From NCBI RefSeq assembly GCF_000026545.1, contig NC_011601.1: a stretch of DNA of 64,000 nt. One strand, written 5' to 3'. This DNA comes from Escherichia coli O127:H6 str. E2348/69 (lineage in GTDB: Bacteria > Pseudomonadota > Gammaproteobacteria > Enterobacterales > Enterobacteriaceae). The notes below the pieces were generated by a model. The model had not been told where the DNA came from. It ran no database searches and saw nothing but the letters and a program-made list of their open reading frames with translations. This document shows positions 7,253-59,469 of this stretch, in pieces (the stretch's first letter is position 1; each line of letters opens with the position of its first letter). The position numbers and the translations under genes were made by a program.

Positions 7253-7569
7253 ATGTTCACCTTTATTGAACTACAAGGATTTAGCAAACGCCGCCAGTTA
7301 TTGCTACCTGATAAGTAGTTCCGGGCTTTTCAGGAACTACTCATTCAAGATCCCACTGCCGGTGACATTATCGCAGGCACAGGCAGTTTTAGAAAAATTC
7401 GCTGGAACCGTTCTGGAATGGGGAAACGGGGTGCATTCGGATAATTTATTACAACGTAACACGCAATGGCCGAATTTATCTGGCGTTGATTTATCCTAAA
7501 AATGAACAGGATGATTTAACAGAAGAACAAAGAAAGGCATTGAAACTATTGTCCGAGAAGCTGCTTTAA
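7253..7569 (+). pseudogene. Decayed RelE/HigB-family type II toxin gene (internal amber stop plus a -1 frameshift)
   Basis: ATG 7253 reads MFTFIELQGFSKRRQLLLPDK, then in-frame TAG at 7316-7318, then FRAFQELLIQDPTAGDIIAGTGSFRKIRWNRSGMGKRGAF. A 1-nt shift near 7436-7440 (ttc gga taa where ttc cgg ata would keep the frame) precedes RIIYYNVTRNGRIYLALIYPKNEQDDLTEEQRKALKLLSEKLL, stop 7567-7569. The conceptual protein of about 105 aa resembles RelE/HigB-like toxins (GKRGG-R-IYY core). Confidence 0.75.
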
Positions 7570-7627
7570 TGTTGAAGCTCCACAAATTCCACCATGGCCG
7601 AAATGCCAACGGAGGCATTGAAAACAG

Positions 7628-7924
7628 ATGAAAGATGAATTATTTGCTGATCTTCTTGCCAGCGCAGAAGAAATGGTACGCATCGAAAAGGGTGAAGAAA
7701 CGCCTGAACCAGAGCACGTCCATACTTTTAGCGAAATCGATGTAAAAGCGATCCGTGAAGCAACGGGTTTACGTCAGCAAGATTTTGCTGTCGCCGTAGG
7801 GGTAAGTTATGACCTGGTCAAAAGCTGGGAAACCAAACGCCGTCAGCCTACCGGAGCACCCCGAAAATTGCTCCTGCTTTTGCAAGCGAATCCTTTCATT
7901 ATCAATCAATTGAAAACAATCTAA
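7628..7924 (+). CDS. XRE-type helix-turn-helix antitoxin (HigA/COG2944-like), apparently intact
   Basis: 98 aa ORF with SD GGAGG upstream; HTH segment GLRQQDFAVAVGVSYDLVKSWETKRRQPTG; sits immediately downstream of the toxin remnant (toxin-first HigBA-like arrangement). Confidence 0.75.
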   Translation: MKDELFADLLASAEEMVRIEKGEETPEPEHVHTFSEIDVKAIREATGLRQQDFAVAVGVSYDLVKSWETKRRQPTGAPRKLLLLLQANPFIINQLKTI

Positions 7925-7956: not shown

Positions 7957-10024
<2,068 letters not shown>

Positions 10025-10251
10025 TGTTTGTACTCCCAAAGGTTCGCAACAATTTGTAAGCGTGTATTCTTAAAAAAGCTCACGTTCGTCACCAGCTAAA
10101 TCTGGTATGAATTTCAGCCTAAATTGTTACAAAGCATATTAAACAGCAGCTTAAGTATACAATTTATTCGGCGAAACATTATTGATTCTGTTGATATGAT
10201 CACGTTATACCCAATGTGCGCATTATCAAACAGACAAAGGGAATCAACGAG

Positions 10252-13254: not shown

Positions 13255-13454
13255 TCCACAACCAAACTCATAATAGATTCCGTTAATATTTATCACTTCA
13301 TTAACAACTGAAACCTTAATTAAACATTAACCAGCCCTAATAATTCGTCATGCGAATTATATTTTCGCTGCGATATAACCTTGAGCCATATCAACATTGA
13401 GTCAGATTATTATTCAAACCAACATTCACACACATTTTAAGTATTGCTGATAGA

Positions 13455-13475
13455 AACCATTCTCATTATCATTGT
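13455..13475 (+). promoter_or_regulatory. Fur box in the feoABC promoter region
   Basis: AACCATTCTCATTATCATTG approximates the Fur consensus GATAATGATAATCATTATC; lies in a long AT-rich leader upstream of feoA. Confidence 0.6.
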
Positions 13476-13583
13476 ACTGTTGATTATTTAATCTCTCCTT
13501 CGTTGGCAAATCATCTGGTCTCATGTCGCTGTCAAACGCCCCATGAGGTAGTTATCCAGTTAATGAGAAACAAGTAGGCACCT

Positions 13584-13811
13584 ATGCAATATACTCCAGA
13601 TACTGCGTGGAAAATTACTGGCTTTTCCCGTGAAATCAGCCCGGCATATCGCCAAAAACTGCTTTCTCTTGGCATGTTACCTGGCTCCTCTTTTAATGTG
13701 GTGCGCGTCGCTCCACTCGGCGACCCCATTCATATCGAAACCCGTCGTGTGAGCCTGGTATTACGCAAAAAAGATCTGGCCTTATTAGAAGTGGAAGCGG
13801 TTTCCTGTTAA
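13584..13811 (+). CDS. feoA: Ferrous iron transport protein A
   Basis: 75 aa, [28 protein letters not shown]3-like FeoA; immediately upstream of feoB. Confidence 0.93.
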
Positions 13812-13827
13812 TACGGTGATAACAACA

Positions 13828-16149
13828 ATGAAAAAATTAACCATTGGCTTAATTGGTAATCCAAATTCTGGCAAGACAACGTTATTTAACCAGCTCACTG
13901 GCTCACGTCAGCGTGTAGGTAACTGGGCTGGCGTTACCGTCGAACGTAAAGAAGGGCAATTCTCCACCACCGATCATCAGGTCACGCTGGTGGACCTGCC
14001 CGGCACCTATTCTCTGACCACCATCTCATCGCAGACCTCGCTCGATGAGCAAATCGCCTGTCACTACATTTTGAGTGGCGACGCAGACCTGCTGATTAAC
14101 GTGGTGGATGCGTCTAACCTTGAGCGTAACCTGTACCTGACGCTGCAACTGTTGGAACTCGGCATTCCATGCATCGTGGCGCTGAACATGCTCGACATTG
14201 CCGAGAAGCAAAATATTCGCATTGAAATTGATGCGCTGTCGGCGCGTCTTGGCTGCCCGGTGATCCCGCTGGTTTCAACCCGTGGTCGCGGTATTGAAGC
14301 GCTCAAGCTGGCGATTGATCGCTATAAAGCTAACGAGAATGTGGAACTGGTGCATTACGCTCAGCCGCTGCTCAACGAAGCAGATTCACTGGCAAAAGTG
14401 ATGCGTTCCGACATCTCGCTGAAACAACGTCGCTGGCTGGGCCTGCAAATGCTGGAAGGCGATATCTACAGCCGCGCCTACGCCGGTGAAGCGTCGCAGC
14501 ATCTGGATGCCGCCCTCGCCCGTCTGCGTAATGAGATGGACGATCCGGCGCTGCACATTGCCGATGCTCGTTACCAGTGCATTGCCGCCATCTGTGATGT
14601 GGTAAGCAACACCCTGACGGCAGAACCCAGCCGTTTCACCACTGCGATAGATAAAATCGTGCTCAACCGTTTCCTCGGTCTGCCGATTTTCCTCTTTGTG
14701 ATGTACCTGATGTTCTTGCTGGCTATCAACATCGGCGGGGCGTTACAGCCGCTGTTTGACGTCGGCTCCGTAGCACTCTTTGTGCATGGTATTCAGTGGA
14801 TTGGCTACACGCTCCACTTCCCGGACTGGCTGACTATCTTCCTCGCCCAAGGCCTGGGCGGCGGTATTAACACCGTGCTGCCACTGGTGCCGCAGATCGG
14901 CATGATGTACCTGTTCCTCTCCTTCCTTGAGGACTCCGGCTATATGGCGCGTGCGGCGTTTGTGATGGACCGTCTGATGCAGGCGCTGGGCTTGCCGGGG
15001 AAATCCTTTGTACCGCTGATCGTTGGTTTCGGTTGTAACGTACCGTCGGTAATGGGCGCACGTACGCTTGATGCACCGCGTGAACGTCTGATGACCATCA
15101 TGATGGCACCGTTTATGTCCTGCGGCGCGCGTCTGGCTATCTTCGCAGTATTTGCGGCTGCCTTCTTCGGGCAGAACGGTGCGCTGGCGGTCTTCTCGCT
15201 GTATATGCTCGGTATTGTGATGGCGGTGCTGACTGGCCTGATGCTCAAGTACACCATCATGCGCGGTGAAGCGACGCCGTTTGTCATGGAGCTGCCGGTC
15301 TACCATGTACCACACGTTAAAAGCCTGATTATCCAGACCTGGCAGCGTCTGAAAGGCTTCGTTCTGCGTGCTGGTAAAGTGATTATCATCGTCAGCATTT
15401 TCCTGAGTGCTTTCAACAGCTTCTCTCTGAGCGGGAAAATCGTCGATAACATCAACGACTCGGCGCTGGCGTCCGTCAGCCGGGTGATCACCCCGGTCTT
15501 CAAGCCAATTGGCGTGCATGAAGATAACTGGCAGGCAACGGTTGGCCTGTTTACAGGTGCCATGGCGAAAGAAGTGGTAGTGGGTACGCTCAACACCCTC
15601 TACACCGCAGAAAATATTCAGGACGAAGAGTTCAATCCGGCAGAGTTTAACCTCGGTGAAGAGCTGTTCAGTGCGATAGATGAAACCTGGCAGAGCCTGA
15701 AAGACACCTTCAGCCTTAGCGTACTGATGAACCCCATTGAAGCCAGCAAAGGCGACGGCGAAATGGGTACCGGGGCGATGGGCGTGATGGATCAGAAATT
15801 CGGTAGCGCAGCAGCAGCTTACAGCTACCTGATTTTCGTCCTGCTGTATGTACCATGTATCTCGGTGATGGGAGCCATCGCCCGTGAATCAAGCCGTGGC
15901 TGGATGGGCTTCTCCATCCTGTGGGGGCTGAATATCGCTTACTCGCTGGCAACATTGTTCTATCAGGTCGCCAGCTACAGTCAGCACCCAACTTACAGCC
16001 TGGTGTGCATTCTGGCGGTTATCCTGTTTAACATCGTGGTTATCGGTCTGCTGCGCCGCGCGCGTAGCCGGGTGGATATCGAACTGCTGGCAACCCGCAA
16101 GTCGGTAAGCAGTTGCTGCGCAGCCAGCACCACCGGTGATTGCCATTAA
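13828..16149 (+). CDS. feoB: Ferrous iron transporter FeoB (N-terminal GTPase plus polytopic permease)
   Basis: 773 aa from [21 protein letters not shown] (G1 motif). Confidence 0.95.
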
Positions 16150-16385
16150 TGGCTTCACTTATTCAGGTGCGTGATTTGCTGGCGTTACGGAGCCGTATGG
16201 AAGCGGCCCAGATAAGCCAGACATTGAACACTCCGCAGCCAATGATTAACGCCATGCTGCAACAGTTGGAAAGCATGGGCAAAGCCGTGCGGATTCAGGA
16301 AGAACCTGACGGCTGCCTCTCTGGCAGTTGTAAAAGCTGCCCGGAAGGCAAAGCCTGTCTGCGCGAGTGGTGGGCGCTGCGTTAA
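16149..16385 (+). CDS. feoC: FeoC (YhgG) winged-helix iron-sulfur protein
   Basis: 78 aa from [11 protein letters not shown]; Cys cluster [15 protein letters not shown]; start overlaps the feoB stop (TAATG). Confidence 0.9.
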
Positions 16386-19238: not shown

Positions 19239-19814
19239 ATGATCCGTATTTCCGATGCTGCACAAGCGCACTTTGCCAAACTGCTGGCAAATCAGGAAGA
19301 AGGGACACAAATCCGCGTATTTGTGATTAACCCTGGCACGCCTAACGCTGAATGTGGTGTTTCTTATTGCCCGCCGGACGCTGTGGAAGCCACCGACACC
19401 GCCCTGAAATTTGACCTGCTGACCGCGTATGTTGATGAGTTAAGCGCTCCTTACCTGGAAGATGCAGAGATCGATTTTGTTACCGACCAGTTGGGTTCGC
19501 AGCTGACGCTGAAAGCGCCTAACGCCAAAATGCGTAAAGTGGCTGACGATGCGCCGCTGATGGAGCGCGTGGAGTATATGCTGCAATCACAGATCAACCC
19601 ACAGCTTGCTGGTCACGGTGGTCGCGTTTCGCTGATGGAAATCACCGAAGACGGTTACGCCATTTTGCAATTTGGCGGCGGCTGTAACGGTTGTTCCATG
19701 GTCGATGTAACGCTGAAAGAGGGGATCGAGAAGCAGTTGCTGAACGAATTCCCGGAGCTGAAAGGTGTACGCGATCTCACCGAACACCAACGCGGCGAGC
19801 ACTCTTACTACTAA
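19239..19814 (+). CDS. nfuA: Fe-S cluster carrier NfuA
   Basis: 191 aa, [17 protein letters not shown]-terminal Nfu CxxC (GGGCNGCSM). Confidence 0.93.
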
Positions 19815-19835
19815 GTTCTCTCCTCTTTTGTCGAT

Positions 19836-19876
19836 TGCCCGATGTGACGCTAAAGCGTCTTATCGGGCCTGTACGT
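19836..19876. repeat. REP-like palindromic element downstream of nfuA
   Basis: TTGCCCGATGTGACGCTAAAGCGTCTTATCGGGCCTGTACG; imperfect REP-type palindrome. Confidence 0.5.
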
Positions 19877-21494: not shown

Positions 21495-21505
21495 TAATAC
21501 TGATA

Positions 21506-21596
21506 GCCGGATGCGGCGTGAACGCCTTATCCGGCCTACGATTCGGCATTAATTAGTAGGCCGGATAAGACGCGTCAAGCGTCGCATCCGGCATCA
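21506..21596. repeat. BIME: two inverted REP elements between gntT and malQ
   Basis: GCCGGATGCGGCGTGAACGCCTTATCCGGCCTAC ... GTAGGCCGGATAAGACGCGTCAAGCGTCGCATCCGGC. Confidence 0.85.
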
Positions 21597-55815: not shown

Positions 55816-56853
55816 TTACCTCGCGAGAGTCACTGCGGAGGGAGAAGCTTGCTCAAAACCGCGTTCAAGGATTTCCAGATTCGTAAGAACTTCAGATTCC
55901 TTGACGTAATTTGGCGCACCGTTGGTAATGGTTTGATACAACGCATCATAAACGCGCCCATAATCGCCCATCTCTGGCTTCATCTCTTCTCTTACCGTCA
56001 CGCCCTCGTCATTGACATACTCCAGCACACCGACCGAATCATCCGCTGCGAATCCTGGTTCGCCCGGCATAATATTAGCCTTCAGGCTAGTTTCCTGCTG
56101 GTCGATACCGTATTTAATAAACGAACCTTTCTTACCGTGAACGATAAATTTCGGATAATCGATTTTCACCAGATGGCTGGTTTTGACGATGGCTTTTAGA
56201 TCGCCATAAAACAACTGCGCTTCAAAGGTGTCGTCCGGATTGGCTTTATTACGCAGGCTGCGGATGTCATAAGCGACGTGATCCGGGCGACCGAACAGAG
56301 AAATAATCTGGTCCATCGTATGCACACCAAGGCCATAGAACGCGCCATCCTGCGGTAGCCCCGGTTTGGTTTCTGCCACCGGGCGGTAATAGTCAAAATG
56401 GCTTTCCACTTCGACAATCTCTCCCAGCTTGCCGCTTTCAATCGCTTTTTTCGCTGTCAGGAAGCAGGAATCAAAGCGACGATTCTGATACGGCGTAACG
56501 ATCAGCCCTTTGCTTTTCGCCAGTGCAAACAGCTCTTTCGCCTGCGCAATTGTCGGAGTGAACGGTTTTTCGACCAGCACATTTTTCCCGGCTTCCAGCG
56601 CGCGCTTCGCGTACTCGAAGTGGCTGTCCGCGTGGGTGCAGACGACAACCAGCTTAACATCGGGATCGTTTAGCACTTCGTCGAGATCGCTGGTGAAATG
56701 GATATGGGAATAAATGGGGGCCTGTTCTTCCGGCTTCGCATGGCGGCGAAAAATATGCGCGACATGCCAGCTATCCTTGCGGTTAAGTACATACGGCAGA
56801 TGGTAACGGGTGGTGCTTTTGCCGAAGCCAATAAAGGCGCAGTTAATGACCAT
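55816..56853 (-). CDS. yhhX: Gfo/Idh/MocA-family NAD(P)-dependent oxidoreductase YhhX
   Basis: 345 aa, MVINCAFIGFGKSTTRYHLPYVL (Rossmann N-terminus). Confidence 0.9.
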   Translation of the reverse strand: MVINCAFIGFGKSTTRYHLPYVLNRKDSWHVAHIFRRHAKPEEQAPIYSHIHFTSDLDEVLNDPDVKLVVVCTHADSHFEYAKRALEAGKNVLVEKPFTPTIAQAKELFALAKSKGLIVTPYQNRRFDSCFLTAKKAIESGKLGEIVEVESHFDYYRPVAETKPGLPQDGAFYGLGVHTMDQIISLFGRPDHVAYDIRSLRNKANPDDTFEAQLFYGDLKAIVKTSHLVKIDYPKFIVHGKKGSFIKYGIDQQETSLKANIMPGEPGFAADDSVGVLEYVNDEGVTVREEMKPEMGDYGRVYDALYQTITNGAPNYVKESEVLTNLEILERGFEQASPSAVTLAR

Positions 56854-56971
56854 GATTTCGTCCTTTTTAAGGTGGTTATTTACACCTTAGCGCAAAGCGG
56901 ACGTGGTTCCTACTGGAGTGCGCATAACGAACACAAGCACTTCCCGAGGATAAATTGAGAACGAAAGGTCA

Positions 56972-57065
56972 AAAAAAAAGCCAGCACCCGGCTGGCTAAG
57001 TAATACTGGAAGCAATGTGAGCAATGTCGTGCTTTCAGGTTCTCCGCGAGGGTCTTCCTGATCGC
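56972..57065 (-). ncRNA. ryhB: RyhB iron-responsive small RNA
   Basis: Minus strand reads GCGATCAGGAAGACCCTCGCGGAGAACCTGAAAGCACGACATTGCTCACATTGCTTCCAGTATTACTTAGCCAGCCGGGTGCTGGCTTTTTTTTT, which I recognise as E. coli RyhB including its terminator hairpin; located between yhhX and yhhY as in K-12. Confidence 0.92.
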
Positions 57066-57066
57066 G

Positions 57067-57090
57067 AGACAATAATAATCATTCTCATTT
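57067..57090 (-). promoter_or_regulatory. Fur box overlapping the ryhB promoter
   Basis: Minus strand AATGAGAATGATTATTATTGTCTC immediately upstream of the RyhB 5' end; matches the Fur consensus GATAATGATAATCATTATC. Confidence 0.75.
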
Positions 57091-57186
57091 GCACTTGTCC
57101 AACACTTTTTGCAAAAAAATGCATTTGACTCGCATTTGAAAGTCAATGATGTTGAAAGGGACATTTACCCCAAAGAGGACAAAGGA

Positions 57187-57675
57187 ATGAGTGAGATAGT
57201 AATACGCCACGCAGAAACACGCGATTACGAGGCTATCAGGCAGATTCACGCCCAGCCGGAGGTGTATTACAACACGCTACAGGTGCCTCATCCTTCAGAA
57301 CAAATGTGGCTGGAACGACTCACCGCTCGCCCTGGCATCAAGCAGTTAGTCGCCTGTATTGATGGAATCGTCGTAGGCCATCTCACCATTGACGTGCAAC
57401 AACGCCCACGCCGCAGTCATGTTGCCGATTTTGGTATCTGTGTCGACTCCCGTTGGAAGAACCGCGGCGTCGCCAGCGCCCTGATGCGAGAGATGATTGA
57501 AATGTGCGACAACTGGTTGCGGGTAGATCGTATTGAGCTAACGGTGTTCGTCGATAACGCGCCAGCAATTAAGGTCTATAAAAAATTTGGCTTTGAGATT
57601 GAAGGGACTGGCAAGAAGTACGCGCTGCGTAATGGTGAATATGTCGATGCGTATTATATGGCGCGGGTGAAATAG
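57187..57675 (+). CDS. yhhY: GNAT-family N-acetyltransferase YhhY
   Basis: 162 aa from MSEIVIRHAETRDYEAIRQIHAQPEVY; acetyl-CoA motif RWKNRGVASALM. Confidence 0.88.
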   Translation: MSEIVIRHAETRDYEAIRQIHAQPEVYYNTLQVPHPSEQMWLERLTARPGIKQLVACIDGIVVGHLTIDVQQRPRRSHVADFGICVDSRWKNRGVASALMREMIEMCDNWLRVDRIELTVFVDNAPAIKVYKKFGFEIEGTGKKYALRNGEYVDAYYMARVK

Positions 57676-57735
57676 AGAATTTGCAATCTACGTTTGTCAT
57701 TTAAGCCCTCACCTACCGGGAGAGGGCTTAAGATA

Positions 57736-59469
57736 TTAATACCCCGCCGTTAAATCATCCACCGAGCGTGGGTCGGATGCACCGTACAGCTCACCGTCCG
57801 GCCCAACCATAATGCTTTGTGTACTGCCCATCGCCTCTTTCAGCGCCACTTTCTGACCTTTTGCTTCCAGCAGCTTGATCGTATCCGGGCTAAACCCTTT
57901 TTCGACACGCAGCTCGTCCGGCAACCACTGATGGTGGAAACGCGGCGCATTGGTCGCTTCGGCGACGTTCATTCCATAATCGATGCTATTCACTACCATT
58001 TGCAGCACAGTGGTGATAATCCGGCTACCGCCTGGGCTTCCGGTGACCAGCCAGGTTTTACCATCCTTGACCACAATGGTTGGTGACATCGACGACAGCG
58101 GGCGTTTATTCGGCCCGACGGCGTTGGCATCGCCGCCCACCAGCCCGTAAACGTTCGGTACGCCTGGTTTGGCGGAGAAATCATCCATCTGGTTATTGAG
58201 CAAAATACCGCTCTCGCCCGCGACAATGCCCGTACCGAAGGTGGTGTTCAGCGTATAGGTCACCGCCACGGCGTTACCGTCTTTATCCACTACTGAGTAA
58301 TGGGTAGTTTGATTACTCTCATAAGGCGCAAGCTTGCCAGGACGAATTTCGCTGGATGGCTTCGCTTTATTGATATCGATTTGATCGGCAATAGATTTGG
58401 CATAGGCTTTATTGGTCAGCGCCTGCCACGGTACTTTGACAAAATCCGGGTCGCCAAGATATTCCGAGCGGTCGGCATAGGCGTATTTCTCAGCTTCTGC
58501 CATGATTTGCATCGCGTCGGCGCTGCCAAAGCCGTACTTCTGCATATCGAAGTTTTCCAGAATATTGAGGATTTGTACGATATGAATACCGCCGGAAGAT
58601 GGCGGTGGCATGGAGTAAACCTGATACCCGCGATAATCGCCGCTTATCGGTGTGCGTTCGACCGCTTTATATGCCGCTAAATCTTCTTTGCTGATCAAGC
58701 CACCGTTTTTCTGCATCTCCTGGGCAATCTGTTCCGCTATCGTGCCTTTGTAGAATTCATCCGGGCCGTTTTCGGCAATCATCTTCAGGCTCTTTGCCAG
58801 GTTCGCCTGCACCAGCTTGTCGCCCTTTTTCAGCGGTTCGCCCTCTTTCCAGAAGATAGCTTTGCTGTTTTCGTGGTTCGGCAGCACTTCACTGCCGTAG
58901 GTTTTGAGATCGTCAGCCAGCGCGTCGTTAACGATAAAACCATCGCGTGCCAGTTTAAACGCCGGTTGCACCACTTTATTCAACGGCATGGTGCCGTATT
59001 TATCCAGCGCCAACGAGAAACCCGCTACCGTACCGGGTGTGCCGGAAGCCAGATGCGAAGTGAGTGATTTTTTGCTGTCCGGGTTGCCCTGATCATCGAG
59101 GAACATATCGCGGGTCGCTTTGGCGGGTGCCATTTCGCGGAAATCGATAGCCGTGGTATTGCCATTTTTCGAGCGGATCAGCATAAAACCACCGCCGCCC
59201 AGATTCCCTGCCTGCGGATGCGTTACTGCCAGCGCGTAGCCCACCGCCACGGCAGCATCAACGGCATTCCCGCCCTCCTTGAGGATATCCACCCCCACCT
59301 GAGTGGCAGTAGCATCTACAGACGCCACCATTCCCTGCTTAGCGCGTACCGGATGGAAGACATCTTCCTCCACACCATAAGAAACAGGTGGCGCGGCTAC
59401 CGTACTAAAACAACTTCCTGTGAGCAGAGCAGCAATGGCCACCCGGCGTAAAAACGTCGGTTTTATCAT
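57736..59469 (-). CDS. ggt: Gamma-glutamyltranspeptidase (periplasmic precursor)
   Basis: 577 aa from MIKPTFLRRVAIAALLTGSCFSTVAA (signal peptide); autoprocessing-site Thr in the TTHYSVVD context. Confidence 0.93.
   Translation of the reverse strand: MIKPTFLRRVAIAALLTGSCFSTVAAPPVSYGVEEDVFHPVRAKQGMVASVDATATQVGVDILKEGGNAVDAAVAVGYALAVTHPQAGNLGGGGFMLIRSKNGNTTAIDFREMAPAKATRDMFLDDQGNPDSKKSLTSHLASGTPGTVAGFSLALDKYGTMPLNKVVQPAFKLARDGFIVNDALADDLKTYGSEVLPNHENSKAIFWKEGEPLKKGDKLVQANLAKSLKMIAENGPDEFYKGTIAEQIAQEMQKNGGLISKEDLAAYKAVERTPISGDYRGYQVYSMPPPSSGGIHIVQILNILENFDMQKYGFGSADAMQIMAEAEKYAYADRSEYLGDPDFVKVPWQALTNKAYAKSIADQIDINKAKPSSEIRPGKLAPYESNQTTHYSVVDKDGNAVAVTYTLNTTFGTGIVAGESGILLNNQMDDFSAKPGVPNVYGLVGGDANAVGPNKRPLSSMSPTIVVKDGKTWLVTGSPGGSRIITTVLQMVVNSIDYGMNVAEATNAPRFHHQWLPDELRVEKGFSPDTIKLLEAKGQKVALKEAMGSTQSIMVGPDGELYGASDPRSVDDLTAGY

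Follow-up and report, generated by a model that had tools for sequence, protein, structure and literature searches.

The ryhB locus and its neighbours

The window analysed here is a 64,000-nucleotide stretch of the chromosome of Escherichia coli O127:H6 strain E2348/69 (contig NC_011601.1). Its genes run in the order igaA...feoABC...glg...gntRKU-yhhW-yhhX / yhhY-ggt-ugp, and in this order RefSeq and the window are colinear. The spacer between yhhX and yhhY, 333 bp in length (56854-57186), houses ryhB. The identities of the two flanking protein genes were assigned with NCBIfam equivalog models.

55816-56853, minus strand: yhhX, oxidoreductase (NF007574, 776 bits, and RefSeq), on the same strand as ryhB and downstream of it
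56971-57065, minus strand: ryhB, the 95-nt RyhB small RNA, with its +1 G at 57065 and the last U of its tail at 56971
57187-57675, plus strand: yhhY, GNAT N-acetyltransferase (NF007527, 366 bits, and RefSeq), divergent from ryhB

What is the identity of the gene in this spacer? When the whole 64-kb window was searched with Rfam cmscan, the single gathering-level match was to RyhB (RF00057), at 57036 to 56972 on the minus strand. With a score of 83.1 bits, where 55 is the gathering threshold, and an E-value of 3.6e-14, this match extends over the full model (positions 1-67), which itself spans only the 3' 65 nt of the RNA. The K-12 gene (b4451; NC_000913.3, 3580922-3581016), aligned to window positions 56971-57065 on the minus strand, is identical at 95 of 95 nucleotides. 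The length of mature RyhB is usually quoted as 90-95 nt. A product of 95 nt was described by Morita et al. (PMC4509938).

The initial annotation had placed RyhB on the minus strand of the yhhX-yhhY spacer, a placement that the Rfam score, the complete identity to b4451 and the neighbouring genes bear out; the alignment to the RyhB covariance model that it had proposed as a check is the one reported above, with its score above the gathering level. The interval that it had assigned, 56972-57090, contains the RNA (save for the last T of the tail, 1 nt, which it leaves out), the Fur box and the -10 hexamer, but the -35 hexamer lies 6-11 nt beyond its end. We conclude, with near certainty, that the locus is an intact, canonical chromosomal ryhB with its Fur operator. 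The gene is already known in E. coli and has been studied in E2348/69 itself.

It had also been anticipated that ryhB would be missed by protein-centred annotation. This proved correct: no feature lies under the match in E2348/69 or in any other RefSeq/PGAP E. coli record listed, and among the E. coli records listed the ncRNA is annotated only in the curated K-12 record. Because the listed RefSeq/PGAP records carry no feature at ryhB, default or protein-only pipelines evidently miss an important gene, and to flag this routine annotation gap is of practical value for genome scans. In NZ_LT827011.1, where positions 3717296-3717628 correspond to window positions 56854-57186, the PGAP tags skip RS19920 between RS19915 (yhhX) and RS19925 (yhhY); a feature may have been dropped there, or may merely not be displayed.

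Content differing from that of K-12 is located at window positions 7253-7924, 37202-40187 and 57676-59469. The gene next to yhhY in K-12 is yhhZ, whereas in E2348/69 ggt directly follows yhhY. Between pckA and envZ, in an arrangement that is not that of K-12, lie a frameshifted RelE/ParE toxin pseudogene and nadS. The position of yzgL in K-12 is taken here by a frameshifted PstS-family gene and two hypothetical genes.

Promoter and Fur operator

Upstream of the 5' end of the RNA lie the following elements.

57072-57101, minus strand: sigma-70 promoter of ryhB, with -35 TGGACA at 57101-57096, an 18-nt spacer and -10 TATTAT at 57077-57072
57068-57086: primary Fur box, matching the consensus at 16/19 positions on the plus strand and 15/19 on the minus strand, the top consensus match in the 64-kb window
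57074-57092: second, overlapping Fur register (14/19), 6 bp upstream of the primary box

The promoter agrees with the consensus at 10 of 12 positions, and the 5' end annotated in K-12 (57065) falls 6 nt after the end of its -10 hexamer. It was the sole promoter-like site found by a consensus scan of 56700-57400, a scan of such low sensitivity that the promoter of yhhY also went undetected.

How does the operator stand out from the rest of the window? The search for Fur sites was a Hamming scan of the entire 64 kb with the 19-bp consensus GATAATGATAATCATTATC. In thirty first-order Markov simulations, matches of at least 15/19 arose by chance at 0.17 per window. The primary box extends from -21 to -3, with the whole of the -10 hexamer inside it. 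That a Fur box overlaps the ryhB promoter, as the initial annotation had maintained, is thus supported at the level of the sequence by a predicted site matching at 16/19 positions across the -10 hexamer. Overlapping Fur sites were described as forming a cluster at ryhB by Chen et al. (PMC2189734), and Fur gel-shifts an oligonucleotide of the ryhB operator, the site scoring 25.2 bits and centred at -15 (PMC2189734).

At a single position of the promoter region, 57090 (-25), the window has A where K-12 has G. This position is in the spacer between the -35 and -10 hexamers and within the second Fur register, and both alleles mismatch the Fur consensus. Over a 146-bp segment comprising promoter and gene, most of the genomes listed show 98.6% identity, a figure that would fit two K-12-type differences (57090 and 56968).

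The pairing core and its conservation

57006-57032, minus strand: conserved core with the target-pairing seed GCACGACAUUGCUCACAUUGCUUCCAG, RyhB nt 34-60

How might this core recognize a target? An exact-complement search found that RyhB nt 38-46 (GACAUUGCU) are the perfect complement of K-12 sodB from -4 to +5, a segment spanning the AUG; the sodB sequence used in the pairing analysis was that of K-12, not that of E2348/69. At -18.0 kcal/mol the duplex between the core and sodB is more stable than the duplexes of shuffled sequences (-10.4 ± 2.8 kcal/mol), 18 of 1000 of which were equal or better. A full-length RNAduplex calculation, RyhB against sodB from -60 to +40, was discarded: it returned an unrealistic end-to-end duplex, and 55 of 500 shuffles did as well. 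The core-only duplex and the exact-complement search were substituted for it.

Within E. coli the gene is nearly invariant. The 95-nt RyhB was found in 5424 of 5426 complete genomes and, in 5358 of those 5424, at an identity of at least 99%. The median number of copies per genome is 1 and the maximum 3. All E. coli genomes but one match the 146-bp segment of promoter plus gene at an identity of 95% or more.

Beyond E. coli, the exact 27-nt core was searched against contigs representing one genome per species. It occurs in at least 120 stretches, from the Enterobacterales, the Aeromonadaceae (Aeromonas), the Vibrionaceae and Zobellella. The genera include Citrobacter, Enterobacter, Klebsiella, Yersinia, Serratia, Pantoea, Photorhabdus and Dickeya, together with Pectobacterium, Hafnia, Aeromonas, Photobacterium, Aliivibrio, Salinivibrio, Zobellella and others. 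Among the matches listed, 115 core copies have enough flank for a Fur-box scan, and in 114 of these 115 homologous loci the 130 nt upstream of the core contain a Fur box matching at 14/19 positions or more. In random 130-nt windows from the same loci, used as controls, only 3 of 575 (0.5%) carry one. Insertions or deletions of 1, 2 and 4 nt also distinguish the homologues, within the 5' region or hairpin and within the linker that leads to the terminator.

Two arrangements were seen in passing. Many Enterobacterales, among them Yersinia, Photorhabdus, Serratia, Pantoea, Pectobacterium and Hafnia, have two unlinked copies of ryhB. In Salinivibrio two RyhB cores stand in tandem, approximately 300 nt apart, with a Fur-like box upstream of each (L085, 10920-11253; L089, 11696-12027).

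Terminator and fold of the RNA

56971-56997, minus strand: Rho-independent terminator and Hfq-binding module, with a 7-bp stem AGCCAGC/GCUGGCU, the loop CGGGU and a 9-U tail

The hairpin proper occupies 56997-56979 and is followed by nine U down to 56971. It was the only terminator picked up by a scan of 56700-57400 and is also part of the minimum free energy (MFE) fold. The terminator hairpin and poly-U that had been read from the sequence are both there, and both are intact. In the study of Morita et al. the polyU tail has a length of 9 and the hairpin an energy of about -10.7 kcal/mol; hairpin and tail together make up the Hfq module, and the efficiency of termination is about 80% (PMC4509938).

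Is the stem maintained among the homologues? In 80 distinct homologues aligned from core to tail, among the matches listed, stem pairing stands at 97.9%. Three of the seven stem pairs show compensatory changes (26 cells), from A-U to C-G or G-C and from C-G to U-A. The covariation score of the terminator was reached by 0 of 500 shuffles and by none of the slid controls. Pairs within the core are unable to vary in this alignment, since the homologues were picked by an exact match to the core.

The remainder of the RNA is less distinctive in its folding. The MFE of the whole RNA is not more stable than that of shuffles (z = -0.77), as is usual when an sRNA is short and its seed open. Across 29 Enterobacteriaceae sequences an RNAalifold consensus shows the 5' hairpin UCAGG/CCUGA to be conserved, and compensatory changes were found in 0 of 8 pairs. 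Because its sequence never varies, the structure of this hairpin is neither supported nor contradicted independently. For the 5' region the RNAalifold consensus disagrees with the single-sequence MFE.

Other RNA genes and iron-responsive loci in the window

RyhB had been described as the only confident RNA gene in the window. This holds for gathering-level Rfam matches and for tRNAs, a search of the window having found none of the latter, but it overlooks a further region:

9878-10215, plus strand: region homologous to AsompR (b4842), identical at 336 of 338 positions to the K-12 antisense RNA and overlapping the 5' end of ompR

The Rfam scan is blind to AsompR because this RNA has no Rfam family. 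When the Rfam scan was made permissive (E <= 1) it otherwise returned only sub-threshold matches, among them matches to eukaryotic families and one to ArcZ, with 23.8 bits where the gathering score is 66. Such matches were not accepted as RNA genes and are treated as noise or REP elements. Those to naRNA4/CssrE (28.7-37.8 bits against 59.5) flank gntT, at 19793-19869 on the plus strand and at 21502-21536 and 21560-21593 on the minus strand; they are probably repeat elements of the REP type.

The window had likewise been credited with two iron-responsive loci, ryhB and feoABC. The feoABC operon is indeed present, at 13584-16385, and is a published target of Fur, repressed notably under anaerobic conditions (PMC4676285 and PMC2189734). 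A Fur site at feoA, on the other hand, lacks consensus-level support. The Fur-like sites upstream of feoA (13452-13476) reach only 13/19, and the simulations give 8.6 such matches per window. Since 13/19 is the chance level, Fur control of feoABC is drawn from the literature and not from the sequence. The Fe-S carrier gene nfuA (19239-19814) would make a third iron-related gene in the window.

Alternative readings of the locus

Could the locus specify something other than an expressed regulatory RNA? Open reading frames that overlap ryhB do exist, mechanically, at 56887-57072 (minus strand, 61 aa, TTG start), 56910-57164 (minus strand, 84 aa) and 57024-57128 (plus strand, 34 aa), and one of them might in principle encode a small protein that is the functional product in place of the RNA. 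However, these frames extend across promoter, terminator hairpin and poly-T tract, in a region that has no CDS in RefSeq, and the homologue indels of 1, 2 and 4 nt would break them. A conserved reading frame is excluded by these gaps in the 5' region and linker. Conservation is centred, instead, on the 27-nt core and on compensating pairs of the stem, a pattern proper to RNA and not to codons. We consequently reject the overlapping frames as coding genes, and consider a protein product extremely improbable. Just as improbable is the proposal that this copy is silent or decayed and is no longer expressed in E2348/69. Its only evidence is the one promoter-spacer difference from K-12, the A for G at 57090, but this change falls outside both hexamers, at a position where the Fur consensus is mismatched in either allele. 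Throughout its transcribed region the copy is identical to the functional gene of K-12, its Fur box, terminator and promoter hexamers (-35 and -10) are all unchanged, and RyhB has been detected, and found active, in EPEC E2348/69 (PMC8550237 and PMC6094958). On the strength of this identity to a functional gene and of the published expression data we reject a silent remnant.

If the promoter at 57072-57101 drives ryhB, might it serve yhhX too, or even primarily? Read-through of the terminator would then create an iron-regulated ryhB-yhhX operon resembling sgrS-setA. The gene yhhX has the same orientation as ryhB and starts 117 nt past the end of the RyhB tail, and a simple consensus scan found no further sigma-70-like promoter between the two, although that scan missed the promoter of yhhY as well. 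Before RyhB was recognized, the Fur site at ryhB was assigned to yhhX (PMC2189734). The ryhB terminator has a measured efficiency of about 80%, and the authors of the measurement propose that ryhB 'seems to be co-transcribed' with yhhX (PMC4509938). The same terminator is nonetheless strong, and iron depletion raises termination (PMC4509938). Of the 122 homologous core copies listed, 23 are followed by yhhX in the same orientation and most have no yhhX there, and the distance from ryhB to yhhX varies among genera from 75 to 1465 nt (matches listed). We regard the operon as unlikely, and read-through into yhhX would in any event supplement the RyhB reading, not supplant it.

The divergent neighbour presents a different pattern. 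Among the matches listed, 48 of the 122 core copies have a divergent yhhY upstream, in genera that include Yersinia, Serratia, Pantoea, Rahnella and Hafnia, and its start is 143-213 nt (mostly 151-181 nt) from the core. In the matches listed the pairing of yhhY with ryhB is thus more widely conserved than the tandem of ryhB with yhhX, and its spacing is almost constant, which hints at a shared and constrained control region. The ryhB promoter and Fur operator may conceivably control both neighbours, yhhX by way of some 20% read-through and yhhY by way of the same Fur sites, a suggestion to which we attach rather little probability. Were it true of yhhX or of yhhY, the response to iron starvation would gain an oxidoreductase or an acetyltransferase.

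A model for the RyhB circuit

The reading that we favour is that of a canonical RyhB gene under Fur control. When iron is plentiful, Fe2+-Fur would occupy the operator (57068-57092), lying over the -10 hexamer and the start site; because the operator covers both, RNA polymerase would be blocked. When iron is scarce, Fur would depart and an RNA of 90-95 nt would be transcribed from 57065 to the intrinsic terminator at 56997-56971. The module to which Hfq binds would consist of the hairpin and 9-U tail of the terminator together with the U-rich stretch before them. Hfq would stabilize the RNA and make its single-stranded core (nt ~34-60) available for pairing with target mRNAs. These mRNAs would encode dispensable iron-using proteins, and the core would pair across their start codon or ribosome-binding site. 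The paradigm among these is sodB; sdhCDAB, acnB, fumA, ftnA and bfr would also be targets. Pairing is expected to block translation and to recruit RNase E, the two RNAs being degraded together, so that iron is saved for essential proteins. In EPEC, RyhB would in addition repress grlRA and dampen the expression of the LEE virulence genes.

How well does the locus accord with this model? Membership of the RyhB family, an intact promoter, operator and terminator, conservation part by part and complementarity of the seed to sodB are properties of the locus itself. The binding of Fur, the dependence on Hfq, the decay coupled to RNase E and the list of targets come from the literature and are predictions for this copy. 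Iron sparing by RyhB through base pairing is established (PMC4676285). In EPEC, RyhB represses grlRA and hence the LEE, and in the EPEC Hfq interactome it is more abundant under conditions that activate virulence (PMC6094958 and PMC8550237). The anatomy of the locus fits the textbook circuit, and nothing contradicts it. As nothing in the E2348/69 copy deviates from the textbook locus, no new biology follows from it. The importance of the gene is that of RyhB in general, the central post-transcriptional regulator of the iron economy of E. coli which, in EPEC, connects iron status with the expression of the LEE virulence genes.

Comparison with known systems

The closest known system is ryhB of K-12 (also SraI, b4451; RF00057), which equals that of E2348/69 in the 95-nt RNA, in both promoter hexamers, in Fur box and terminator and in its yhhX/yhhY context. 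The E2348/69 sequence differs from it past the terminator, at 56968 and 56947 and by a 1-nt indel, and in the promoter spacer at 57090. With RyhB homologues and paralogues of other gammaproteobacteria (such as the pairs of Salmonella, Yersinia, Serratia, Photorhabdus and Pantoea, and the longer RyhB of Vibrionaceae) the E. coli gene has in common the exact 27-nt core and the upstream Fur box. The GC-rich terminator with its long U tail is common to E. coli and to RyhB homologues outside the Vibrionaceae. Homologues elsewhere have divergent 5' regions and lengths, and many genomes have two copies, whereas almost all E. coli have one.

Functional analogues are found in Pseudomonas, where PrrF1 and PrrF2 are Fur-repressed sRNAs that spare iron through repression of sodB and sdh. 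They belong to a different Rfam family, and in the scan of the window the ryhB locus matched RyhB alone at or above the gathering score.

In its arrangement with yhhX, ryhB resembles units of the SgrS-setA type, in which an Hfq-binding sRNA with a leaky terminator is followed by a protein gene on the same strand (PMC4509938). No peptide is encoded by RyhB, and the co-transcription of ryhB with yhhX has the standing of a proposal.
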